Shown: positions 12,574-53,607 of the stretch, piece after piece | How the letters are laid out: each line of letters begins with the position of its first letter | How positions within the stretch are numbered: the first letter of the stretch is position 1 | Assembly: GCA_964596395.1 (NCBI GenBank) | Contig: CAZQSY010000001.1 | Span: forward strand, 27,763-91,762 | DNA length: 64,000 nt | DNA from: an uncultured Candidatus Saccharibacteria bacterium | GTDB lineage: Bacteria; Patescibacteriota; Minisyncoccia; Phycocordibacterales; UBA9973 | Direction of reading: 5' to 3' | The notes under the pieces: generated by a model | The model's database searches: none | What the model was told of the DNA's origin: nothing | Seen by the model: the letters and a program-made list of their open reading frames with translations, nothing else | Translations under genes and position numbers: made by a program

Positions 12574-13101
12574 TTACTTCAACGTCAGATTGCGAAACAA
12601 ATCCACAAAGAAATACCCCAAAATCATTAGACTTCCAAAGGGTTTTAGTTTCACGTCTTTTCGATCCTTGGCGACAGATTCATTGAAAGTAAGGGCGCAC
12701 CGGCGAACAATCTCTGGGTCGGATGCCTGCCGCATGCTGACCCCAGCTTTCGCAAACTTTTCGCCGGTTTTACTGAAACAATCAGGATTCTGGGCGCCGA
12801 AAATCACATTTTTTATTCCAGCCTCTATTATCGCGTCAGCGCAACTTTTTAGAGCCGGATTCTGTCTCTCGCAGCACGGCAGGAGCGTGCTGAAAAGAAC
12901 AGCTTCAGAGCTGAAAAGGATTTTTTTCTTTAAAATTTCATCGGTCAAAATTGTCTCAGCGTGATATATACCGTCGTCCGAGTTGGCGGAATACGCAATG
13001 ACATTCCCGTTATCAACCAGACACGCCGAAACAATCCCCTTTGGGTCTTTAGATTTTTTAGCCGTTTCAAATAAAAAGTCAAAAACTTCTTTCTCGTTCA
13101 T
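12574..13101 (-). CDS. cytidine/deoxycytidylate deaminase zinc-binding domain protein
   Basis: HAE ... PCC motif arrangement of CDA fold; spacing atypical so moderate. Confidence 0.4.
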   Translation of the reverse strand: MNEKEVFDFLFETAKKSKDPKGIVSACLVDNGNVIAYSANSDDGIYHAETILTDEILKKKILFSSEAVLFSTLLPCCERQNPALKSCADAIIEAGIKNVIFGAQNPDCFSKTGEKFAKAGVSMRQASDPEIVRRCALTFNESVAKDRKDVKLKPFGSLMILGYFFVDLFRNLTLK

Positions 13102-13125
13102 GCTTCACCATTATAGCACGGATCG

Positions 13126-13509
13126 TCAATTAAAATTCACCCTGAAACTGTACATGCCCATACTACAGGTGCCCTGGAGCGGTTTGCCGGCAATGGGTGT
13201 CCCGATATCAATCTCGGTGTCGCCGGAGGGCGATAAAATCTTCTGAAAGCCGACCGAAGGAATCGAAAGCGCGGATGAACAGTCATACACGCCGTTCGTT
13301 TTCACTATAAGTTTCGTCGGTATACCCGCTTTGGCGTTTGAGACCTGCGGAAAATATCCCCCGCCGGCATTAACCGTAACATATTGCACGCCATCTATTA
13401 TTTCTGAATTTTCCACAGGGCCATCCGTCCCGCCCGCGCCGCCCCAGAAGATGATGGCCACGCCCGCGAGAAGCCCGATGGTTAAGATTACGGAAGTAAT
13501 TTTATTCAT
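13126..13509 (-). CDS. small secreted/anchored protein with Cys/Met motif (GTCSMGMY), possible metal-binding
   Basis: N-terminal TM/signal; overlaps start of HMA-transporter gene (operon). Confidence 0.3.
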   Translation of the reverse strand: MNKITSVILTIGLLAGVAIIFWGGAGGTDGPVENSEIIDGVQYVTVNAGGGYFPQVSNAKAGIPTKLIVKTNGVYDCSSALSIPSVGFQKILSPSGDTEIDIGTPIAGKPLQGTCSMGMYSFRVNFN

Positions 13510-14579
13510 ATGTTGAAAATTGGATTAATTATACCTAAACCCGCCAAACCGGAAAGGAGCGCGAAGAGACCGAGACCCGTCACGAAAACCCCGGCTGATT
13601 TGAAGAAAAGCGGCGCGTGTTTCGAATGCGCGAAAGAAGCCGAACCGAAAGAAAGAAGCGACAAAACGGGCAAGGTTCCCAGAGCGAAAGCCGTCATTAT
13701 AAGAAGACCGGAAAGAAAAGAACCCGAAGAAATCGCCGCGACCTGCATCGACTGGGTGAAACCGCACGGCAGGAAAAACGTGCCGAAACCGACCAATACC
13801 GGGGTAAAAGTTCTGTGTTCTATCTTTCTGAAAAATCCGAAAATCGACGAAGGCAGGGTCAGTTTATTTTTGCGAAAAACGCCGGCCAAATCAAGCCCGA
13901 GAGCAAGCATCATCAGAGAAGCGATTATCCCGAGTATTCCCGTGAAAGTGAAATTTATGCCCACCGCTCCGCCTAGCGCCCCCAGTATTCCGCCCAAGAG
14001 AGCGAAACCGCCCAGCCGGCCGGCATGAAACAGTATAAAATTCTTTTTATCGCTCACATTGTCTTGCGAAACTTTTGCCGAAAGAGAGAGTACCAGACCC
14101 CCGACCACCGCCAGACAACTCGAAACCGAAGCAATCAGACCGATTACGAAACTTGCCGTCGGGGTGGTTTTCCCGCCGATGCCGATATTCAAAATCCCGG
14201 ATTTTTGCAGAACAAAGAAAAGCGCGAGGAGTAAAATTCCCAGAGGCATGGCCAGCCAAATCCCCCCGTTTTCCGATTTTTCCACGACTGCCGCCCTTTC
14301 TAAAGAGAGCGCGTAGCCGTGCTGTTTTATTTTTTGCGAGAGAGAGTCGGCGACTTCCTCTGCGCCAAGGTCGCTTTCAATCTGCACGTCAACCGTTTCC
14401 TTTTTCAAGTCAACTTTTACTTTTTCCACTCCTTCCGCTTCTTTCAAAACATCTTCAATCAAGATTTTGCAAGAAGCGCAATGGGTTCCGGAAACATGAA
14501 ATGTGTGTGTTTTCATAAAATTTTTTAAATACTGAAGTTCGACTTCAGTATTTTTAAATCGGCTCATCCTCGGGCGCAC
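13506..14579 (-). CDS. heavy-metal-associated (HMA) domain fused to DsbD_2/TauE-like multi-TM permease
   Basis: N-terminal HMA fold with GTHCASC metal-binding loop; C-terminal ~250 aa polytopic membrane domain. Confidence 0.55.
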   Translation of the reverse strand: MRPRMSRFKNTEVELQYLKNFMKTHTFHVSGTHCASCKILIEDVLKEAEGVEKVKVDLKKETVDVQIESDLGAEEVADSLSQKIKQHGYALSLERAAVVEKSENGGIWLAMPLGILLLALFFVLQKSGILNIGIGGKTTPTASFVIGLIASVSSCLAVVGGLVLSLSAKVSQDNVSDKKNFILFHAGRLGGFALLGGILGALGGAVGINFTFTGILGIIASLMMLALGLDLAGVFRKNKLTLPSSIFGFFRKIEHRTFTPVLVGFGTFFLPCGFTQSMQVAAISSGSFLSGLLIMTAFALGTLPVLSLLSFGSASFAHSKHAPLFFKSAGVFVTGLGLFALLSGLAGLGIINPIFNI

Positions 14580-29088: not shown

Positions 29089-31080
29089 ATGAAAAAAATA
29101 ATTAAAAAAATAGCGCTCTTGGCAGTACTGATGCTACCTCTAGGGATAGCTCTACCTGCACTGGCAGTAGTGGGTGCCACTTGGAACACGACGGGTAGTT
29201 ATGTAGTAAATATGAACTATCTCGGTACCGATTATGCTCACGACATGAATTTAGTTCAGGATGGCCTGGGAAACTTGACCGGTAACGGCGGTTCACCTTC
29301 GCTATCAAATGTTTACACATGGACAATCACATCTGGAACTGTTTCAGGAAATTCAGTTGATTTTCTTGCTAACTACACAGCGACTCCGGACGCAGTGACT
29401 CCCCAAACAGTGCTTCATGTGCTAGCTACGATAGCTTTAGATGGAACAATGTCTGGAACATGGTCTGACAACTATCAAGGAGGTGAGAGAACTGGCACAC
29501 TTACTACGGTAAGCGGTGCAGCGGTCCCGCTTGGCTCTCTGTCGGCTGAGGACTTTGGTGTCGTAAATTATGACACAGGTCTCGGCATGCTCAAGGGTTA
29601 CAGCGCGGGATTTGGACTCACAGATGCCACGTTTGCTGGCGCAACTTCTGTAGTTGTAAAGTTATATTCTGCCGAAAATGCTTTACTGCAAACCAACACA
29701 GCAATCTTTCCGAAGTTCAATACAGACATAACCGGGACACAATTCTCTTCCCCATTTGACGTCTCTGGAAATTTCGACTACGCCACAGATGGATATTGGG
29801 CGAATGTTAGAGAAACACAATTCGGACAAAGCACTCCCGCTACTCGTGTAGTGGCGACTGTCACACTGGCAAACGGTAAAATAGTAACTGCTGAAAACAC
29901 CAATATGGTGGGTGATGCTACTACTATCTACCCTGTAATAATTACCCCGACAGATTCCACAGTCCACATCTTCAAATTAATCGACGGTGTACAGGCGACG
30001 ACAGCCAACGCAAATAGCGTTAGCTTCCCGATGTTTACTTCTACTTACAATGCGCCGTTTACTCTCGGCCCAGGCGGCTGGACGACCGGTGACATTGATT
30101 ACGAGGCCTCAACTTCTCCAATGGCTTTGGGGTCGTCTTATAGCGCCAATGAAGTTCTCACCACCCCTCTCGTCGGTACCACTTGTGATGCAGACCATAC
30201 ATATTCTCTGATTGGGTACGGAGTCGGTAACACACTCCCAGAAGCTGTCGCGGCTACCCCGAGTATCACTACCCCAAGCTTTACCAACCTGCAAGGAGAC
30301 AAATACATAGTTGTGAGAAACCATAAATGCGAGACGACAACTCCTCCGACAACAGAAACAGGACACATAATCATCGCAAAATCAACACTTCCGAACAACA
30401 CCCAGGACTTCTTATTTACCAACAATTTTGAGAATGGTAACCCTGCGACTTTCAGTTTGGATGATGACGGCGATGCCACATTGTCAAACATGCGCGATTC
30501 TGTAGTACTTGCCGGCACATACTCCGTTTCTGAAACTGAAGTAACCGGATGGTCTTCGGTCTCGGCAACTTGTTCTGACGGTAGCCCGGTAAGTGCTATT
30601 GTTGTCTCTGCCGGCGAAACGGTTGTTTGTATGTTCATTAACGCTAAAACAGCACCGGCATCTCCGAGCATTAGCGGCATGAAATACAATGACCTTAATC
30701 GAAACGGCAAGAAAGATACCAATGAACCGGGTCTTTCTGGGTGGGTTATTAAACTAAAAGGTAATAACACTGTTGTTTCCACAACAACTGATGCGAACGG
30801 TAACTACGACTTTGTCAACATTACTCCTGGAACATACAAAGTGCGCGAAGTTCACAAAAATGGATGGAAACGTATGAGCAAGAACCCAAAAAATATTGTT
30901 ATTTCTGCCGATTCTGTTGTCACCGGTGTCAACTTTGGAAATGCGAAGAAACAAAAGTATGAAAAAGAAGACAGCGAACAAGACGACAATCGTAACGAAC
31001 AAAGCGGAAATTATTTTGGAAATCATGGAAGGAGCAACTATGAAAGAGACCAAAATAGAAAGGACCACAGCAATAGATAA
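29089..31080 (+). CDS. secreted cell-surface protein with C-terminal SdrD-B/Cna-B-like domain and charged tail
   Basis: signal peptide; C-terminal GMKYNDLNRNGKKDTNEPGLSGWVIKL...TTTDANGNYDF...GTYKV pattern. Confidence 0.5.
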   Translation: MKKIIKKIALLAVLMLPLGIALPALAVVGATWNTTGSYVVNMNYLGTDYAHDMNLVQDGLGNLTGNGGSPSLSNVYTWTITSGTVSGNSVDFLANYTATPDAVTPQTVLHVLATIALDGTMSGTWSDNYQGGERTGTLTTVSGAAVPLGSLSAEDFGVVNYDTGLGMLKGYSAGFGLTDATFAGATSVVVKLYSAENALLQTNTAIFPKFNTDITGTQFSSPFDVSGNFDYATDGYWANVRETQFGQSTPATRVVATVTLANGKIVTAENTNMVGDATTIYPVIITPTDSTVHIFKLIDGVQATTANANSVSFPMFTSTYNAPFTLGPGGWTTGDIDYEASTSPMALGSSYSANEVLTTPLVGTTCDADHTYSLIGYGVGNTLPEAVAATPSITTPSFTNLQGDKYIVVRNHKCETTTPPTTETGHIIIAKSTLPNNTQDFLFTNNFENGNPATFSLDDDGDATLSNMRDSVVLAGTYSVSETEVTGWSSVSATCSDGSPVSAIVVSAGETVVCMFINAKTAPASPSISGMKYNDLNRNGKKDTNEPGLSGWVIKLKGNNTVVSTTTDANGNYDFVNITPGTYKVREVHKNGWKRMSKNPKNIVISADSVVTGVNFGNAKKQKYEKEDSEQDDNRNEQSGNYFGNHGRSNYERDQNRKDHSNR

Positions 31081-44881: not shown

Positions 44882-46555
44882 CTAAATGGCGTCCAGTTCA
44901 ATCGAGAATACCGACCCGCGGCCATCTTCTTTATTCGGCTCCATCCAGACGCGCCCTTTGTGCGCCTGTATAATCATCCGCACCGAGTATAGGCCGTAGC
45001 CGGTAGAATCAACGTTAACTTTTACCGACTCTTTGCCCCGGCCGCCTTCGGTGAATAGATTTTTCTTGTCCTCTTCCGAAACGCCGATGCCGGTGTCTTT
45101 TACGTAAAAGATTACTTTCTTCTGCTTGCCGTCGGGCGAAATATTTTTCTTGAGCCCCACCGTCACCTTGCCCGAAGGGGTGTAGCGAATGGCATTCTCA
45201 ATCAAATTATTCAGTGCTTCTTTCAGCCAGAAAGAGTCCCCCGAAACGGAACAAGCATCGTCATCAATCTTGGTTTCTACCTGCAGCCCCCTTGATTCGG
45301 CTGAAATTTTCTTCTCGGCCACTGTGCGCAGGACCATCTGTTTGAAATCAAGCGGCTGCATTTCGTATTTCACCGTTCCTTTCTCTAGATTCGCGGCGTT
45401 TAACACCAGGTCAACCGTTTCGATGCCCATGTTGTCTGACTCCAAGCCCTGCTCTACCACTTTTTTCGCTTCTGGCGTTATCACGCCGAACATGCCTTCT
45501 AAAAGACCGCTGAAAACATATTTTGACCGCGTAAACGACCCCTTGACCTTATGCGTCACCAAGTGCACCAGCGATTCCCTCTGCTTCAACAGGTCCTGCA
45601 AATCCGCATTGAGCTTTGCGAGTTCTTCCTTTTGCTGGATTTCTTTTTTGACACCCTTTATCAATAAATAACCAGCCACTAAAACCAATCCTAGGGTAGA
45701 AACAGCTACCCACCGCACATTTTCAATATTGCGGATGAAGATAATGCCTAAGATGGAAATGGCAAGAGCGAACACCAGTACTTGCGCACCTATCAGTTTA
45801 GCATTGAAAGTTTTGAATTTAACAATAAGGTAAGCAAGAAAAACCGTCAGAATAGGCATAGAGAACAACCCCACTTGGGCTAACGTCCAGTTTTCGGTAA
45901 AACTTCCAATAATGTTTCCAGAAACAAAGGCCAACAAGAATAAAGTTACCCCGGCAGTAATCAGAATTATCTGTCTTTTCATTACAGCATCTGCTTTAAC
46001 GTATTTTCGGAAAGCAAAGTCCAATATCCACAATAGGTAAAAAATTTCAATAAAATAAATGTAGTAAGTGGCAATTGGACCTTCTACGGGCTCTCGGTAG
46101 CAATTCGTCAAATCGAAACCGACTAATACCAACTTGGTCGGGAGAAGAATAATTATTGGTAAAAGAAGGGAAAATATACCAACTTTTTTCCTGAAACTTA
46201 TATCCCGTTTCTCCACAAAAACGCTCACAAAGTATACCGACAAAGCATAGATAAGCGGCTCAGCCACTAAAATCATGCCCCAAAAAAACATAATAAGAGA
46301 AGGTTTCTCGTTCGCCCATAAAATCAAGTCAAAGAAAACCCATAGAGCAAACGCCAACATAATCAAGAAGAGCAATCGGTTCACAAGCTCTTTTCGGTTT
46401 TGAAAAAAAACAAAGAATCCTACCGCCACAGCCAAAACCAACGACAACATATGGGAGTAGTAGATGAGTGGGCCAAACACGTTAGCAGAAAAAACAAGAA
46501 ACCGGGCGGTATCCCATTCGCACATCGCTATGAAATCACTAATGACAGTTTCCAT
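44882..46555 (-). CDS. sensor histidine kinase with ~8-TM sensor domain (no adjacent response regulator)
   Basis: H-box HLVTHKVKG, N-box, G-box DTGIGV; HATPase_c. Confidence 0.75.
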   Translation of the reverse strand: METVISDFIAMCEWDTARFLVFSANVFGPLIYYSHMLSLVLAVAVGFFVFFQNRKELVNRLLFLIMLAFALWVFFDLILWANEKPSLIMFFWGMILVAEPLIYALSVYFVSVFVEKRDISFRKKVGIFSLLLPIIILLPTKLVLVGFDLTNCYREPVEGPIATYYIYFIEIFYLLWILDFAFRKYVKADAVMKRQIILITAGVTLFLLAFVSGNIIGSFTENWTLAQVGLFSMPILTVFLAYLIVKFKTFNAKLIGAQVLVFALAISILGIIFIRNIENVRWVAVSTLGLVLVAGYLLIKGVKKEIQQKEELAKLNADLQDLLKQRESLVHLVTHKVKGSFTRSKYVFSGLLEGMFGVITPEAKKVVEQGLESDNMGIETVDLVLNAANLEKGTVKYEMQPLDFKQMVLRTVAEKKISAESRGLQVETKIDDDACSVSGDSFWLKEALNNLIENAIRYTPSGKVTVGLKKNISPDGKQKKVIFYVKDTGIGVSEEDKKNLFTEGGRGKESVKVNVDSTGYGLYSVRMIIQAHKGRVWMEPNKEDGRGSVFSIELDAI

Positions 46556-46720
46556 GATTATTCTTCAAGTAAAGTTTCGTAAAACGTCTCTTCGTCAGTA
46601 AAAAAATCAAAGTCCCTTATGACTACATAGCGGTAATAAGCAACAACGATAGAAATCATTATGATAAAAGCAAACACCGAGAAAAAAGCCCTGGATTTTC
46701 GCTCAACTATCATGCTTGTA

Positions 46721-47272
46721 TTATACACGGAAATCTTTTTTAATAAAATCAACCCAAGTTTTCTTGAAATCTTTATAGCTCTTGAAGTTTTCCCTATTGA
46801 ATTTCCTAAAAACCTCTTTGTAATAAGGTGTGGAACGGTTACAATACCGAGCGAAAAATTTCTTAGGTAAAAACTGGATGGACTGTACTGTCTTTCGACA
46901 ATTTTTCTCTCCGCAACTGCAGTGAAAACGCCAAAAAATATCAGCTTCATAAAAAGAATAATCCGAAGTAATTTCTTCTCCTTTTTTTATATTCTGCAAA
47001 GACACGATCTTATTCTTTTCAGTAAACATTGAATTGGGATTACAGGAGTGGTTGAGGTAAGGCCCGAGGCCTTTGGGGTGAATCCAGGTATTTTTATCGA
47101 CACCATACAGGTTATAACTTATAGTATCTGCTATTTTCTGACTAGTAATCAAAAACTTTACTTTTTTTCCCTGTACTGTAAAAATCTTTTCTCCCTTTTT
47201 TATATCTTTGCGGGCTAAAACACCTTTGCCATGTACTTTGCTTTTACCAATATATGCCTTATTCATGCTCAT
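46721..47272 (-). CDS. SET-domain protein (putative lysine methyltransferase) with post-SET Cys cluster
   Basis: NHSCNPN and C-terminal CSCGEKNC. Confidence 0.65.
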   Translation of the reverse strand: MSMNKAYIGKSKVHGKGVLARKDIKKGEKIFTVQGKKVKFLITSQKIADTISYNLYGVDKNTWIHPKGLGPYLNHSCNPNSMFTEKNKIVSLQNIKKGEEITSDYSFYEADIFWRFHCSCGEKNCRKTVQSIQFLPKKFFARYCNRSTPYYKEVFRKFNRENFKSYKDFKKTWVDFIKKDFRV

Positions 47273-47898
47273 TGATGCTTGGAGAGAAAGCTTATATCTC
47301 TTATAATGTTCTTCTTTCGAAGCAAAAGTATGAAAATTATGATGAGATCCGAAACAAGCATGTAAATCGGATACACTAAAATGGCGAAGGAGAAGCGTTC
47401 TACCGCAAACATATTCAAGCTATCTGCCACGCCGGTGCCAAACCACGCCCAGAAATCTTCCCCTTCCGGCCGCAGAAAGGATTTTTTAATGGTCGGCACA
47501 ATAGCAAAAGAATCAATCACCAGGTTGGTAACCAGGGCTACCACAGGGTTATCAAACACAATCCATAAAACAATACTTATCACTGCGCCCAAAAAACAAA
47601 AAAGGTCAGTACGGTCCTCCATACTTCCTTCTCCGTACTTCATCGACAGTAAAGCTATCAGGAATGGTCCCAGAAATTCCACATACGGCACCCATACTGT
47701 ATTCTCAGCTCCAGAAGAATCATAACTTAGCGCCAACACCAGCCCCATAAAGGCCCAAACCCACCAGGTAACCCTGTTGGGTTTTGACCCGCCCTTAAAT
47801 ATAGAAATTATATAAACAATATAAGCGAAGAATGCTATCGCGCCTGCCACAATTCCCAGAACTGATTTCGTATCGCCGAGAAAAATCAAGTCCAACAT
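47269..47898 (-). CDS. hypothetical polytopic membrane protein
   Basis: 6 TM profile only. Confidence 0.3.
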   Translation of the reverse strand: MLDLIFLGDTKSVLGIVAGAIAFFAYIVYIISIFKGGSKPNRVTWWVWAFMGLVLALSYDSSGAENTVWVPYVEFLGPFLIALLSMKYGEGSMEDRTDLFCFLGAVISIVLWIVFDNPVVALVTNLVIDSFAIVPTIKKSFLRPEGEDFWAWFGTGVADSLNMFAVERFSFAILVYPIYMLVSDLIIIFILLLRKKNIIRDISFLSKHQ

Positions 47899-48179
47899 AT
47901 TTCCTGTATTATATCACGAATATTTTATAATGTAAAGCCGTTGCGCCTTAATTGCCTGATAATTAAGCCGAAAAAAGTCCAACCCAAAAAACAAAAAACC
48001 ACCTTGCAGGTAGTTTTTCACAGGTGCTATTTCATCATTCCCCACGCCGCGGGGGCGCAGTTCTTTCATTATCGGCAAGAAAAGTTTTTCTGGTCTACGG
48101 AAAAAAACTTTCATTCTTTATCTTAAATCATATCATACTGCTTGAGTATAGCAAGACCGAATTTTAAATCAAAACCCCG

Positions 48180-48300
48180 AATTTGCCGTATTAACTTCGG
48201 TAAAGGAGAAAGTCGTGGAATTGCCTGACTGGTCTTCGGCGGTGCAGGACGTTAACCCGCAAACAGAATTTAGTGACTGGTCAAGACTGTCTGTAGCCAG
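48180..48300 (-). other. in-frame fragment homologous to C-terminal region of giant protein 49750..53607 (LATDSLDQSLNSVCGLTSCTAEDQSGNS vs SATDNLDQSLNPVCGLTSCTAEDQSGNT)
   Basis: manual translation and DNA alignment to 50078..50165. Confidence 0.55.
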
Positions 48301-48602
48301 GAAGACGATGGAAAGGGTACCTGACCCCCTTATCCCCTTTCACTCCCCAATCTTCCCATAAAATATTTCTAATCCCTAGGCATCGCCGTTATTCGCGCCA
48401 ATTGGGATGGTTTTGATGAAAGCGCCGGTTGTATTGTATTGGTAGATCTTTTTGTCTTCTTCATCGACCACGAAATAGTTGGTACCGTCAAATGCTACCC
48501 CTTCGGGGTCACCGTTTGATGGGTTAAGCTTGAACGACTTCTGAAATGCTTTAGTCACGAGGTCATAAAGATACACTAAGCGATCGGCTTCGTCATTTTT
48601 TA

Positions 48603-49048
<446 letters not shown>

Positions 49049-49084
49049 AATAATAAATCATTTAATAATTTGCCTTAACGAAGC

Positions 49085-49309
49085 CTTTATCGGTTGTAAT
49101 GCTCATAGTCGCTATTCCACTAACATACTTTTTCGAAACCACGGTTTTTCCGTCAGAAGAAAAGAGCCGTATTTCCGATTTGTCAGCGGTTGGATTATAG
49201 TGGACAGCGACAATTTTCTTGTCGTTCTGAAGAAAGGTTTGAATCAGTTGGGTAATGGCCGTGTCCTGATGTTCATACTCTACTGAAAGAATGCTCTTGG
49301 AAACTGCCG

Positions 49310-49320
<11 letters not shown>
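49085..49320 (-). other. promoterless, in-frame ~88-codon copy of the C-terminus of the giant protein (…KSILSVEYEHQDTAITQLIQTFLQNDKKIVAVHYNPTADKSEIRLFSSDGKTVVSKKYVSGIATMSITTDKGFVKANY*), candidate silent cassette
   Basis: ~85-90% nt identity to 49775..50010; no frameshifts; preceded by stop of small gene. Confidence 0.6.
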
Positions 49321-49735
<415 letters not shown>

Positions 49736-49749
49736 AATAAATAAATCAT

Positions 49750-52700
49750 TTAATAATTCACCTTAACGATACCTTTATCGGTTGTAATATTTATGGTGGT
49801 CACCCCAGTTGTGTACTTTTTCGAAACCACGGTTTTTCCATCAGAAGAAAAGAGCCGTATTTCCGATTTGTCAGCGGTTGGATTATAGTGGACAGCGACA
49901 ATTTTCTTGTCGTTCTGAAGAAAGGTTTGAATCAGTTGGGTGATAGTTCCTCCTTCATGTTCATACTCTACTGAAAGAACGCTCTTAGGAAGAGCTGTTA
50001 TTGTACCACCATATGCGATTTGGGTCATCTTCACCTTGTGCACATCCTCATCCTCTTGACGAGTAAAGAAGAGAGCCGTGGTATTGCCTGATTGATCTTC
50101 GGCGGTGCAGGACGTTAGCCCGCAAACGGGGTTCAATGATTGGTCGAGATTGTCTGTAGCTGAAAAGATAAAGCTCTCAGATGACGTATCGTAGTAAAAT
50201 GCAAACTCGGGAGGAGTTGCGTCATATACAGTCACGCCGCCGGGCGTGGCTTGGAGGGTTTTATCAATTAAGCCATCTCCGTTTTGGTCAATTTGAAGCT
50301 CTGCGGCCGAAACTACGAAATTTGGAACGACTTCTATGTTGGCAACAGTAGAGTCGGAACTAGGAATACCTTGAAAAGAGGTGAACTCGGTTATAGTGTT
50401 GCCTTGTCGTTTTTCAACATCCAAAGAGAAATTCCCCTCTTCATAACCCTGCAGTTTTAGAGTATACGCAATATCGTCAGGAGCTGAGATGAACTGAACA
50501 TCTCCAATTTGTCTGAAAGTGACATTGGGGATTTCTTCTCTGACTTCATCGGTAATCGGATCTCGTCCTGTGTATCTACCTTGCAAATCTGTGATACCAA
50601 GAGTAAGTGGTGAGTGGAGGGTGTAGTGCAAACGGGTTTTATTTGATTCTAAAGTGGAGTCATCGTTCAGCACAATATTATCTGGGTCAGTAGAAGAATC
50701 CTCATCCTCAATTTTGGATTGCAAAAAAGTACGTAAATTCAATATCTCCATTATATTTCTATGAACCCTATCAGGTGAATTATCTTCATTATACCTCTCT
50801 AGGTTCACCCACCATCTTTCAATATTAGGATTACTGTCTGACATCCATAAAGCACTCGGTGTGACTACTGTACCGTCGCCGTCAACAATGAAACGTGGTG
50901 TATAAGAAAGATACTCTACGCCATTTTTGTCTCTGTAAGTTTTGTAATCCAACCCTGCGAGAGTTTCTTCTCCCCATCCTGCCACTTGTATAACCTCAGT
51001 ATCCGAATGTGGTTGCCAAGAATCAAGCACCTGGTGAACATTTTTCGCTTCTTCATATAAATATGAATTTCCGATATTTGGATGAGTAGTATCATTGAAA
51101 GATGGCTCACTTCTACCATCGCTCCCCAAAATGTAATTTTCAAGTTCGTTTTCATCAGATACAAAAAAACTATACTGAGACAACTGCGGGTTGAAAAACG
51201 GCTTATTTTCGAAAGAAATGAGTTTGTCTACCGCAAAACCAGGATCAACCGTAGTGAAGTAACCAGCAGAAGGAAGTAAATTGTAAACCGCCGGCATATT
51301 TTCTGAAAGTTGGCGTGACCTATCGGCATTCATAATAAAACCACGTCCAAGTTCATTGCCATGAAGTAATGCAGTCATCGCATCCGGTGTACCTACCTGC
51401 GGTACCGCGACAAAAATAATTTTGTCTATCTTTTCGTAAAGGGAATTATTGGTGTCTTTTAATTTTTGGACTAAGGCTTTCGCCACCAAACCTCCGTTGG
51501 AGTGAGTAATAATAATCACTTTTCCATTCCTAGAACTTGCCTGCAATTCCTCTAACTTCTTCAGAACAAAAGACTGCGAAAAATCTTGCGAATTCGTGAA
51601 AGACAAATTACCATCTGTTCCGACCGCGCCATTTGTAATAACATCATCAAGCGAAAGCCGCCAGTCATACGGAATGAAAGCATAATCTTCGATGATTTTA
51701 TCTTCCTCTTTCCATTTTTTAAGATTGTCAAGAAATGATTGATAAATATTAGCGCTAAAAACATCGTCGATTATTCCAGTCTCATCTCCATCACCATCTA
51801 ATCTCTGTGTATCATTTTTAGTATAAACATTATTTACGCTTTTTCCCTGAGTATCAAGTGTAAGGCGCGTATGGTCAGTATCACTCGTAGACACCCACAA
51901 CTCATTGTCTGAAGCTCCATCTTGTTCATACAATCTAGAACCCATAATCCCCGGCAAGAAAAGAATATTTGAAAAACAATCAACGGCGCAAGAAGGATTA
52001 GAAGCATTAATCACCACTGTCCCATCCTCTGCTGCTGGAGCGCAACCGTAAAAGCAATACACGCCGGCCTTCGCCGTGGCTGTGCCGGAAAAAGAGGAAT
52101 CTTCGTAGTATATGGCGATGCGTCCGCCTCCGCCGGCGATTCCCGCGAAGGGCCAAGAAGTACCACCACCATCTGCCTTAAAAACCCCTGCGCCACTTAA
52201 ATTGCCAGCGGTGACATAAATACTACCTCCACTTCCCCGCTCTAATGAATTCACCGTACCAGTCGCCGTGTCTGCTACAGAACTTGCGGTAATTAATCCG
52301 TCGTTTTGCAAATTATTTTCCGCAATAATGCGAATAGCGCCGCCGCCCCGAATGCTGTCTCCTCGGCCGCTGCCAAAATCAGTCGGCGCTTCGGCGGAGC
52401 CGTAGACCGGTTTGGCAGGCGCTCCCCCGCCTTTACCGCCATAGCTGGCGCCGGCGGTGTTTTCCGTAACCGGAGTACCCGGACCGCGGACATACCCTTT
52501 GCCGTTTGCGGAAATTCTAGAGCCCTGCTCGATAAAAATATCGGGGATTTCTAAAAAAATAGTGCGCTCTGGTAAAACTGTTATAGTAGAAGATCCCTTT
52601 AGCGCCAGAGAATCCGCGTGAATTGTTTCTTGTCCGGACAAAGTAAATACCGAGGCGCCGTCTATTAAAATGTTCTGTGCTGTAACATCCGCGCCTGATC

Positions 52701-53607
52701 CCATACTCACTACTGATTTATCCGATATAAAAATATCATTTAATGTAAATGGGCTATCGCTGGCGAGAAATTTCCATGAAGAATCCACTGATAAATTATT
52801 ATTTGCCGTGTCAAAAAATCCCGCCGTTCCGTCTTGAGCGCAGGTCTGAGAAAATCCATCGTAACTTCCACAACCCCCTTTGACCTCCACGGTGCCGGTC
52901 ATGAAAGACGTGGCAAAGTAAATGGCGATGCGTCCGCCGCTGCCGCTGCCGCACGTTTGAGAACAGCTAACATCGAGTCCGCCGCCGTTAGCTTGCCACA
53001 CCCCGCTCCCGGTTAAATCGTTAACGGTTACATATATGCTACCGCCACTGGAACTCCGGTCTCCGTTGGCAGAAATTCTGCCGTTATTGTCAATGGAATC
53101 CGCAGTTATCCAAAGGGCCCCGCCTCCGCGGTTGTTGCCGGTGCCTCTGCCACTGCCTAAATCTTTCGGGTAAACGGCACTTCCGTAATAATAATTTGCG
53201 CCGCCAAAGGGCGTGTCGGGAGCGCCGGGACCGTATACATACCCTTGCCGGTCTGCGGAAAGGACGGCCCCATTTTCAACCGTGATATTTTCGGCATTTA
53301 TTTTTACTCCTTTGAAATCCTCCGGGGAATTTAGGTCGCCTTTTAAGGTGAGCACCGCGTTATTGGTTACGGTAAGATTATTGAAATTATATTCGCCGGC
53401 GGGTAACGTAGCGTTTATAGTCATCACAACATCGGTCTCATCGCTGTCGTCAATGCCGTTTTGATTTAGGTCGGACTGCAAAACCGCGGCTTCTGCCGAA
53501 TAAGCAGAGGTTAAAAAATAAAGTAAGAAAACAAACGTTCCTAATTTCAGTAAAACTTTAAATTGGCGGAGATTCGGTATCATCTGGAAATCCTCTAATT
53601 GACGCAC
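49750..53607 (-). CDS. 1285-aa secreted giant protein: signal peptide, Gly-rich parallel beta-helix-like repeats, central alpha/beta-hydrolase (lipase-like, THSNGG nucleophile elbow), C-terminal beta-rich domains
   Basis: repeated GGG(A/R)I..I motifs in N-terminal half; GHSxGG-type motif VIIITHSNGGLVAKAL; domain boundaries inferred. Confidence 0.5.
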   Translation of the reverse strand: MRQLEDFQMIPNLRQFKVLLKLGTFVFLLYFLTSAYSAEAAVLQSDLNQNGIDDSDETDVVMTINATLPAGEYNFNNLTVTNNAVLTLKGDLNSPEDFKGVKINAENITVENGAVLSADRQGYVYGPGAPDTPFGGANYYYGSAVYPKDLGSGRGTGNNRGGGALWITADSIDNNGRISANGDRSSSGGSIYVTVNDLTGSGVWQANGGGLDVSCSQTCGSGSGGRIAIYFATSFMTGTVEVKGGCGSYDGFSQTCAQDGTAGFFDTANNNLSVDSSWKFLASDSPFTLNDIFISDKSVVSMGSGADVTAQNILIDGASVFTLSGQETIHADSLALKGSSTITVLPERTIFLEIPDIFIEQGSRISANGKGYVRGPGTPVTENTAGASYGGKGGGAPAKPVYGSAEAPTDFGSGRGDSIRGGGAIRIIAENNLQNDGLITASSVADTATGTVNSLERGSGGSIYVTAGNLSGAGVFKADGGGTSWPFAGIAGGGGRIAIYYEDSSFSGTATAKAGVYCFYGCAPAAEDGTVVINASNPSCAVDCFSNILFLPGIMGSRLYEQDGASDNELWVSTSDTDHTRLTLDTQGKSVNNVYTKNDTQRLDGDGDETGIIDDVFSANIYQSFLDNLKKWKEEDKIIEDYAFIPYDWRLSLDDVITNGAVGTDGNLSFTNSQDFSQSFVLKKLEELQASSRNGKVIIITHSNGGLVAKALVQKLKDTNNSLYEKIDKIIFVAVPQVGTPDAMTALLHGNELGRGFIMNADRSRQLSENMPAVYNLLPSAGYFTTVDPGFAVDKLISFENKPFFNPQLSQYSFFVSDENELENYILGSDGRSEPSFNDTTHPNIGNSYLYEEAKNVHQVLDSWQPHSDTEVIQVAGWGEETLAGLDYKTYRDKNGVEYLSYTPRFIVDGDGTVVTPSALWMSDSNPNIERWWVNLERYNEDNSPDRVHRNIMEILNLRTFLQSKIEDEDSSTDPDNIVLNDDSTLESNKTRLHYTLHSPLTLGITDLQGRYTGRDPITDEVREEIPNVTFRQIGDVQFISAPDDIAYTLKLQGYEEGNFSLDVEKRQGNTITEFTSFQGIPSSDSTVANIEVVPNFVVSAAELQIDQNGDGLIDKTLQATPGGVTVYDATPPEFAFYYDTSSESFIFSATDNLDQSLNPVCGLTSCTAEDQSGNTTALFFTRQEDEDVHKVKMTQIAYGGTITALPKSVLSVEYEHEGGTITQLIQTFLQNDKKIVAVHYNPTADKSEIRLFSSDGKTVVSKKYTTGVTTINITTDKGIVKVNY

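Follow-up and report, generated by a model that had tools for sequence, protein, structure and literature searches.

As a rule, antibacterial lipases are made together with immunity proteins encoded next to them, whose copy number and sequence vary (PMC10730906), two such pairs being Tle4/TplE-Tli4, a phospholipase of the Pseudomonas aeruginosa type VI secretion system (T6SS) with its immunity protein, and TslA-TilA of the Staphylococcus aureus type VII system. In polymorphic toxin loci (CdiA-CT/CdiI, Rhs) the gene for a large exported protein, beta-helical in its N-terminal region, is directly followed by a small gene, and recombination with cassettes is their hallmark (Zhang et al. 2012, PMC3482391). 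Here we describe a locus that resembles each of these systems in part, found in a 64,000-nt stretch from an uncultured Candidatus Saccharibacteria bacterium (assembly GCA_964596395.1, contig CAZQSY010000001.1, positions 27,763 to 91,762; hereafter, the window, in which all positions are given). Its main gene (49750-53583, minus strand) encodes a 1277-aa protein with a beta-helix stalk, an LCAT-type lipase domain and an all-beta tail. Next to it lies a gene for a small four-helix membrane protein, and the two recur together across Patescibacteria (the candidate phyla radiation, CPR). Further downstream, displaced copies of the 3′ end of the lipase gene, each with its own small gene, form modules. 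Literature searches on CPR and LCAT, and on Patescibacteria and polymorphic toxins, returned no description of the family or of the gene pair.

Residues are numbered along the 1285-codon open reading frame (ORF) that contains the main gene, and 8 is to be subtracted for the 1277-aa protein. L001, L006 and similar labels denote related loci with which the window was compared.

The lipase gene and its small membrane partner

The central part of the main protein (residues ~546-965; 50713-51972, minus strand) is an LCAT/LPLA2-type alpha/beta-hydrolase domain. The Pfam family LCAT (PF02450) matched residues 620-821 (48.8 bits, cut-off 21; E = 8.2e-13), and the same family is also precomputed for full-length homologs. 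An AlphaFold2 model of residues 541-1285, built with the family alignment (pLDDT 90.9), showed an alpha/beta-hydrolase core with the extra subdomains of the LCAT family. Its closest Foldseek matches were lysosomal phospholipase A2 (LPLA2; E = 2.7e-12, TM-score 0.71), LCAT and the T6SS effector Tle4, with the polyhydroxybutyrate (PHB) depolymerase PhaZ7, secreted triacylglycerol lipases and carboxylesterases at lower ranks. When solved structures were searched by sequence, the single protein gave no match and only the family profile reached one, again Tle4 (E = 2e-5), aligned across FlPGI of the oxyanion loop and HSxGGLvA of the nucleophile.

The landmarks of the domain are LPGIMGS (551-557), PYDWR (646-650) and the nucleophile elbow THSNGG (701-706), and the candidate catalytic residues are Ser703 (codon at 51499-51501), Asp911 (50875-50877) and His949 (50761-50763). 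Among 50 aligned homologs P552, G553, Y647-D648-W649-R650, H702, S703, G705, G706, G910, D911 and H949 are invariant; judged from this alignment, the Ser-Asp-His triad is complete and catalytically intact. We take an AxSxG-type elbow (THSNG here, AHSNG in most homologs), PYDWR and DGDGTV to be common to the LCAT/LPLA2 family. By profile, fold and triad the domain is a new LCAT-like family member with a predicted phospholipase A/acyltransferase activity. It shares the Pfam match, the fold and the triad with LCAT and LPLA2 (group XV PLA2), but its identity to them is only 12-17%, it comes from Patescibacteria rather than eukaryotes, and it is embedded in a 1277-aa, apparently exported bacterial protein, between a beta-helix and a beta tail and with a membrane partner. 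Tle4-Tli4 is likewise a lipase with an adjacent cognate gene, whereas here a Sec-type signal is apparent, the partner is a four-helix membrane protein and not a periplasmic immunity protein, and stalk and tail are joined to the lipase. The scanned ORFs of the window included no T6SS genes.

The main protein has 691 homologs (E ≤ 1e-3) and its lipase domain 1424 cluster representatives (E ≤ 1e-30), the latter always within proteins of about 760-1600 aa, which excludes a chance ORF. Relatives are encoded in at least 165 stretches of species-representative genomes. All 80 related loci from such genomes are from Patescibacteria metagenome-assembled genomes (MAGs), with Paceibacterota, Nomurabacteria, Zambryskibacteria, Kaiserbacteria, Moranbacteria and Lloydbacteria represented, and the public annotations of the relatives read 'alpha/beta hydrolase' or 'hypothetical protein'.

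The neighboring gene, small1 (49310-49735, minus strand), encodes a 141-aa protein with four predicted membrane helices and starts 15 nt past the stop of the main gene. A hidden Markov model of the small family, built from such ORFs, was run on all ORFs of 87 loci, and partners were counted in the 71 loci with enough downstream sequence, using flanks of 10 kb. In 66 of these 71 loci a small-family ORF (~135 aa) starts between -63 and +354 nt from the lipase stop, always on the same strand as the lipase gene, and none was found elsewhere in the flanks. By gene order and strand, the lipase gene and the small gene are an operon conserved across Patescibacteria. The small gene was absent after two DUF5011-type proteins that have the beta-helix stalk alone in common with the main protein. 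A link of the small gene to the beta-helix module is thereby rejected, and the partner therefore belongs with the lipase/tail part.

In small-family proteins, the first of the predicted outer loops has a conserved pair of Cys residues, helix 2 is followed by an invariant Trp, and helix 4 contains a conserved Ser-Leu; the proteins match nothing in Pfam, NCBIfam or PADLOC. A total of 154 homologs were found, none of them functionally named and almost all of the named ones called 'hypothetical protein'; where an organism is given, it is always a member of the Patescibacteria or an unclassified 'bacterium'. Divergence is far greater among the small proteins than among the lipase domains, which share 44% identity on average between loci. 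Small genes are also stacked in tandem, and the small proteins of one locus are mostly 27-36% identical to each other (60-73% for three pairs, in L001, L022 and L064). A 209-aa multi-pass membrane ORF (47269-47898), which has no family assignment, was considered as a third gene of the system and ruled out, as a homolog lies near the locus in L005 only (29% identity, E = 6e-28, same relative position) and none was found in the rest of the 87 loci.

The signal segment, stalk and tail surround the lipase domain. Across the whole protein, 19-mer windows that qualify as hydrophobic begin at residues 16-25 and nowhere else. The segment that contains them (residues 9-40, MIPNLRQFKVLLKLGTFVFLLYFLTSAYSAEA then AV; 53488-53583, minus strand) was modelled as a helix, and the sequence at its end is SAEA/AV, where the slash marks a cleavage site read by eye; by sequence, it fits a Sec signal. 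A whole-sequence scan revealed no second hydrophobic segment, C-terminal anchor or sortase signal. Given this lone N-terminal hydrophobic segment and five closely spaced Cys pairs, the main protein is likely extracytoplasmic.

The stalk (residues ~60-545; 51973-53430, minus strand) consists of two homologous halves of ~250 aa that match motif by motif, i.e., GYV (122 and 371), GGSIYV (188 and 460) and GGRIAIY (224 and 494), and the DNA repeats D11 and D15 confirm this internal duplication. Cys pairs of the stalk are at 215/219, 246/256, 518/522 and 540/544. The AlphaFold2 model of residues 9-560, again with the family alignment (pLDDT 88.4), is a predicted right-handed parallel beta-helix with significant structural matches, and the module (GGSIYV / GGGGRIAxYY) has no match in Pfam, NCBIfam or PADLOC. 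The fold is that of beta-helix adhesins (Tapirin, EtpA/HMW1 TpsA and autotransporter passengers). Membership in the TpsA or autotransporter groups was rejected, given that no NPNL/NPNGI motifs, TpsB gene or beta-barrel translocator were found and that the C-terminus is a beta-sandwich. Patescibacteria are not known to have an outer membrane. A ~470-aa version of the stalk module is fused to immunoglobulin-like DUF5011/DUF5018 domains in other Patescibacteria (L087:5001-8789 and L088:5001-8399), in genes that in both loci closely precede a 48-aa ORF and the genes for ribosomal proteins L10 and L7/L12. The stalk seems to be a display platform that is reused with varied cargo domains.

The tail (residues ~966-1285; 49753-50712, minus strand) is all-beta in the AlphaFold2 model, with a pLDDT of about 84-96 per 10-residue block over residues ~991-1285. 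It includes a calcium-loop-like motif, DQNGDGLID, at residue 1107 and a Cys pair at 1162/1167, has no match in Pfam, NCBIfam or PADLOC, and has only 11 further homologs. According to the identity profile, the last ~150 aa are the most variable stretch of the main protein between lineages, and body and tail similarities are discordant among homologs (e.g., 62% vs 7%, 65% vs 83%).

These results agree largely with the preliminary description of this DNA, made from its sequence without database searches, which had proposed a 1285-aa CPR protein with a signal peptide, Gly-rich beta-helix repeats, a lipase-type nucleophile elbow and beta-rich C-terminal domains. The elbow lies in a confidently modelled alpha/beta-hydrolase fold close to LPLA2, LCAT and Tle4, in a domain scored above cut-off by a Pfam lipase family and with a triad invariant among homologs; the signal-like segment, duplicated stalk and beta tail were recovered as such, and the Patescibacteria origin of all related loci bears out the CPR assignment. 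The minus-strand ORF at 49750-53607 does have 1285 codons when counted from the GTG at 53607. The public protein P0001 (1277 aa), which is 100% identical, starts at the ATG at 53583 (codon 9), and this ATG is more likely the start of the main gene.

Downstream modules and exchange of the small gene

Four further pieces follow small1 on the minus strand. The nearest repeats the final 85 codons of the main gene and its stop (49065-49319; DNA repeat D1) and is silent because it has no usable start codon. Next is small2 (48603-49048), a divergent small gene split into ORFs of 96 and 70 aa, with 36% aa identity to small1. It is followed by a 66-codon remnant (48376-48576) of an alternative NHL/phytase-like beta-propeller cassette (Phytase-like, 1.5e-5, just below the cut-off) and by a 39-codon remnant of main-gene residues 1145-1183 (48196-48312; ATDSLDQSLNSVCGLTSCTAEDQSGN...; DNA repeat D4). 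The first junction falls within the last codons of small1, so that its final codons and stop are duplicated main-gene sequence read in another frame. The repeating module is thus the lipase-gene 3′ end plus a small gene, with displaced copies downstream.

The 85-codon copy is mosaic relative to the expressed main gene. It differs at 35 of 255 nt (86% identity), with the mismatches gathered in three patches around a 128-nt core that has a single mismatch, a pattern with a probability of about 7e-6 under uniform divergence. The adjacent small1 and small2 genes have no blastn-detectable similarity to each other.

The same layout was detected in relatives. A 3′ fragment with a directly following small gene is present in 7 of 64 loci, i.e., the window, L001, L006, L022, L048, L057 and L064. 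The 75%-identical ortholog (L001/L007) is followed by longer, intact cassette ORFs of 160, 319, 393 and 198 aa, and the 50%-identical relative in L006 also has this arrangement downstream. The 66-codon remnant of the window corresponds to the last part of the 393-aa cassette ORF that is intact in L001 (7493-8674; MBG_2 plus an NHL-type propeller), so the family retains alternative tails with a wholly different fold as well. The fragment in L057 is 97% identical to the main 3′ end, whereas the two small proteins of that locus are 31% identical. Cassette ORFs of 292-308 codons remain open in relatives at 55-77% identity. Two of the related loci have further paralogs: in L007 the module array ends with a second, divergent LCAT-like lipase gene (12658-14172), which is 31% identical over residues 549-1084, and L086 has a second, partial paralog downstream.

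The small2 gene is ~95% identical at the nucleotide level to an intact 140-aa orphan gene in L007 (10568-10990), whereas the adjacent 3′ fragments of the window and L007 are only ~70% identical in DNA and the main proteins 75% identical. This step in identity at the start of the gene indicates, at the sequence level, a recent horizontal exchange of the small gene alone. The mosaic copy, the contrast within L057, the open cassettes, the exchange of small2 and the body/tail discordance together argue that the array did not arise by simple duplication and decay.

Both small genes of the window carry pure tetranucleotide tracts, written here for the coding strand, that encode FIYLFIYL. The (TTTA)8 tract of small1 (49458-49492) is in frame, as is a (TTTA)8 tract in L002, and the pure (TTTA)10 tract of small2 (48764-48803) causes the frameshift that splits this gene into its two ORFs. 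The orphan small copies of L001, with 6 units, and of L006, with 4, are also split at this point, and the L007 ortholog of small2, with an interrupted tract of two units fewer, is in frame. Unit number in these coding tracts thus sets the reading frame. Phase variation by tetranucleotide repeats is well known from contingency loci such as those of Haemophilus and Neisseria. Here, likewise, pure (TTTA)8-10 tracts lie inside the coding sequence of a predicted surface-exposed membrane protein, whereas differences in unit number are known only between paralogs and orthologs, with none observed within a population; two Logan contigs (L003 and L004) that end inside the tract are the sole hint of heterogeneity. 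On this sequence pattern, the tracts could be sites of slipped-strand phase variation.

Two known mechanisms of programmed variation were considered and rejected. The mismatches between copies involve all four bases and no reverse transcriptase was found among the scanned neighbors, which does not fit a diversity-generating retroelement. An invertase or shufflon was likewise excluded, as the copies are all direct repeats, inverted repeats are weak (≤39 nt, ≤77%) and no recombinase was found among the scanned neighbors.

Possible roles of the two-gene unit

The reading we favor, with a probability of roughly 0.55, is that the exported stalk-lipase-tail enzyme is a host-membrane phospholipase and that the small four-helix protein serves self-protection. 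The giant surface enzyme would be exported through Sec, and its gene would be co-transcribed with the small gene. The stalk and tail would keep the enzyme against a neighboring (host) cell, where the lipase would cleave or transfer acyl chains of membrane phospholipids, damaging the host envelope and freeing fatty acids and lysolipids for a lipid-auxotrophic cell. The small membrane protein would meanwhile guard the membrane of the producer in an immunity-like manner, a role suggested by its high divergence, the tandem stacking of its genes and the analogy to antibacterial lipase loci. Downstream modules may have been left or imported via homologous recombination with other alleles; they would stockpile divergent small genes and, in principle, alternative tail sequence for gene conversion, and the (TTTA)n tracts could turn a small gene on or off. 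CPR bacteria have incomplete lipid synthesis and are enriched in lysolipids, for which a phospholipase A acting on host lipids has been suggested as a source (PMC7242380), and no mechanism of lipid uptake or breakdown has been identified in them (PMC11665869). A role of the main protein in host interaction, already raised in the preliminary description, may be retained as an inference.

Several observations weigh against this reading. The small1 protein is 66% identical to the partner of a 54%-identical lipase protein and only 31% identical to the partner of a 75%-identical one. Correlations in a crude mirror-tree comparison were modest: the rho of the small protein was 0.40 for the lipase and 0.48-0.51 for the domain next to it on the C-terminal side (0.06 for the beta-helix). 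The small protein is a polytopic membrane protein, whereas the lipase immunity proteins Tli and TilA are soluble periplasmic proteins or lipoproteins. Modules are present in only 7 of 64 loci and hence are not essential to the system, most of the window array is decayed (the 85- and 39-codon pieces and the 66-codon remnant), and the catalytic domain lies outside the exchanged modules, unlike in polymorphic toxins. No switching variants were found: P0002 and P0121 have a single difference, at a residue outside the tail.

Some of these points fit better with a small protein that acts as a docking site or an acyl-acceptor partner of the enzyme and not as its protector, a serious alternative, although we consider it rather unlikely. 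The signal-cleaved giant protein would be held on the surface of the producer by the extracellular loops of the small protein, or acyl chains and lysolipids would be handed to the small protein for uptake, by transacylation as in LCAT and LPLA2. Docking would account for the surface position of a giant protein that has neither a C-terminal anchor nor a sortase signal nor any further hydrophobic segment, and it agrees with the mirror-tree values, which are best for the post-lipase beta domain, and with the conserved Cys pair in the predicted outer loop; the nearest structural relatives include acyltransferases besides hydrolases. There is, however, no obvious reason for a mere anchor to occur in stacks of divergent paralogs with horizontal exchange and repeat-driven switching, and the type of small protein is decoupled from the giant-protein sequence. 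That the hydrolase acts on another ester (PHB, a cutin-like polymer or wall-bound acyl groups), with the protein being chiefly an adhesin or polymer degrader, appears very unlikely: PhaZ7, triacylglycerol lipases and carboxylesterases are among the lower-ranked structural matches, but Pfam assigns LCAT, and none of the 50 homologs departs from the YDWR and DGDGTV motifs. Interbacterial competition is unlikely too, though less so. The locus would then be a polymorphic effector-immunity locus directed against other Patescibacteria or competitors instead of the host, with the extra small genes as orphan immunity genes for the lipases of rival strains. Its layout is indeed that of a polymorphic toxin locus: the large exported protein is beta-helical towards its N-terminus, a small gene comes directly after it (66 of 71 loci), displaced modules of 3′ end plus small gene are present, and there are signs of recombination and horizontal exchange. 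Tle4, to which the lipase is closest in sequence among solved proteins, is an antibacterial effector, and the immunity repertoires of lipase toxins are highly variable (PMC10730906), including that of TslA-TilA, in which an alpha/beta hydrolase of the phospholipase A type is likewise accompanied by a family of protective genes that differ in copy number and sequence. TslA, however, has another secretion route and domain order, and TilA, a DUF576 lipoprotein, is unlike the polytopic membrane partner found here. In the locus described here the lipase occupies the middle of the protein, is its best conserved part and is missing from all modules, and polymorphism is greatest in the small gene; the exchanged 3′ ends are beta-sandwich or, in some alternative cassettes, beta-propeller modules of a binding type rather than toxins. 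The main protein has no VENN, PxxxxDPxGL or LXG motif and no variable C-terminal toxin domain, and no dedicated secretion system was seen in the 64-kb window. Given the absent motifs and the C-terminal fold, membership in the CDI (contact-dependent inhibition), Rhs or LXG systems was ruled out, and since the exchanged C-terminal part is not a toxin and no demarcation motif is present, we do not class the locus as a polymorphic toxin.

A separate question is whether the downstream fragments are neutral debris of duplication and deletion, with the (TTTA)10 frameshift a sign of decay and the C-terminus fixed, which we regard as less likely than not. A tandem duplication from the main 3′ end through the small gene would yield the exact layout, including the junction in the last codons of small1, and the other window pieces are short (39 and 66 codons). 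Moreover, P0002 and P0121 show no switching, and 57 of 64 loci have no fragments. Uniform divergence after duplication, however, cannot give an 86%-identical fragment with a 128-nt core beside small genes that blastn finds dissimilar, and it leaves the 97%-identical fragment beside 31%-identical small proteins in L057 unexplained. Neither do cassette ORFs of 292-308 codons that are open at 55-77% identity, a small2 gene with ~95% DNA identity across genomes whose main proteins are 75% identical, or the independent origin of the layout in lineages only ~50% identical fit with neutral decay. The preliminary description had cast the main protein as the expressed partner of a variation locus. The silent 3′ pieces, of which the longest is mosaic, and the recurrence of the layout in relatives speak for such a locus, but no switching event was found, and all contigs carrying P0005 encode an identical protein, with no cassette switching. 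Its proposal of a variable C-terminus holds for the last ~150 aa between lineages, although the small gene, which it had not listed, is the clearer exchanged element.

Beyond the favored reading of a host-membrane phospholipase with a protective partner, we tentatively raise a broader and rather less probable one, in which the two-gene unit is lipid-acquisition machinery of a large Patescibacteria branch, combining an acyl-transferring lipase with an exchanged, repeat-switchable partner and re-tuning modules. If so, the enzyme would strip acyl chains or lysolipids from host membranes, and the small protein would receive them or shield the membrane of the parasite. Modules of tail plus small gene would re-tune host contact and self-protection through recombination, and the whole would be a polymorphic effector-partner system in which the swapped element is the partner and not the toxin. 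Patescibacteria account for a large share of bacterial diversity, most of them being unable to synthesize membrane lipids themselves (PMC7242380), and the unit offers a specific, widespread and clonable candidate for how they obtain or attack host lipids. The candidate enzyme is of the LPLA2/LCAT type, a class that makes lysolipids and transfers acyl chains, and is mounted on an adhesin-like stalk with a closely linked yet unnamed small membrane partner. The module architecture also suggests that polymorphic-locus dynamics occur in minimal genomes, acting on the partner and binding tail instead of a toxin domain. An operon with recombining, repeat-frameshifted partner modules would be a new form of effector-partner locus.

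Genomic setting

The window is ordinary chromosome, with genes for CTP synthase, GatA, SecDF, FtsW and G6PD. Envelope-sugar genes lie directly upstream of the main gene, whose neighbors are sugar-metabolism and small membrane genes. Promoter and terminator scans returned sites no more common than in shuffled sequence. GC content falls to 0.35-0.38 over 46000-50000, which holds the array and the small genes, compared to about 0.45 for the window and 0.49 where the Gly-rich stalk is encoded. The codons of membrane proteins and the non-coding remnants probably explain this drop as a matter of composition, though imported DNA would fit as well.

Other genes of the window include one for a 663-aa protein with SdrD_B/SpaA prealbumin-like domains (29089-31080), located in another low-GC stretch (0.39-0.42), whose product is a probable further surface protein. 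A SET-domain protein, i.e., a putative lysine methyltransferase of a type unusual in bacteria, is encoded at 46721-47272, and the adjoining gene (44882-46555) encodes a histidine kinase with an N-terminal sensor region of seven transmembrane helices (HisKA_7TM).

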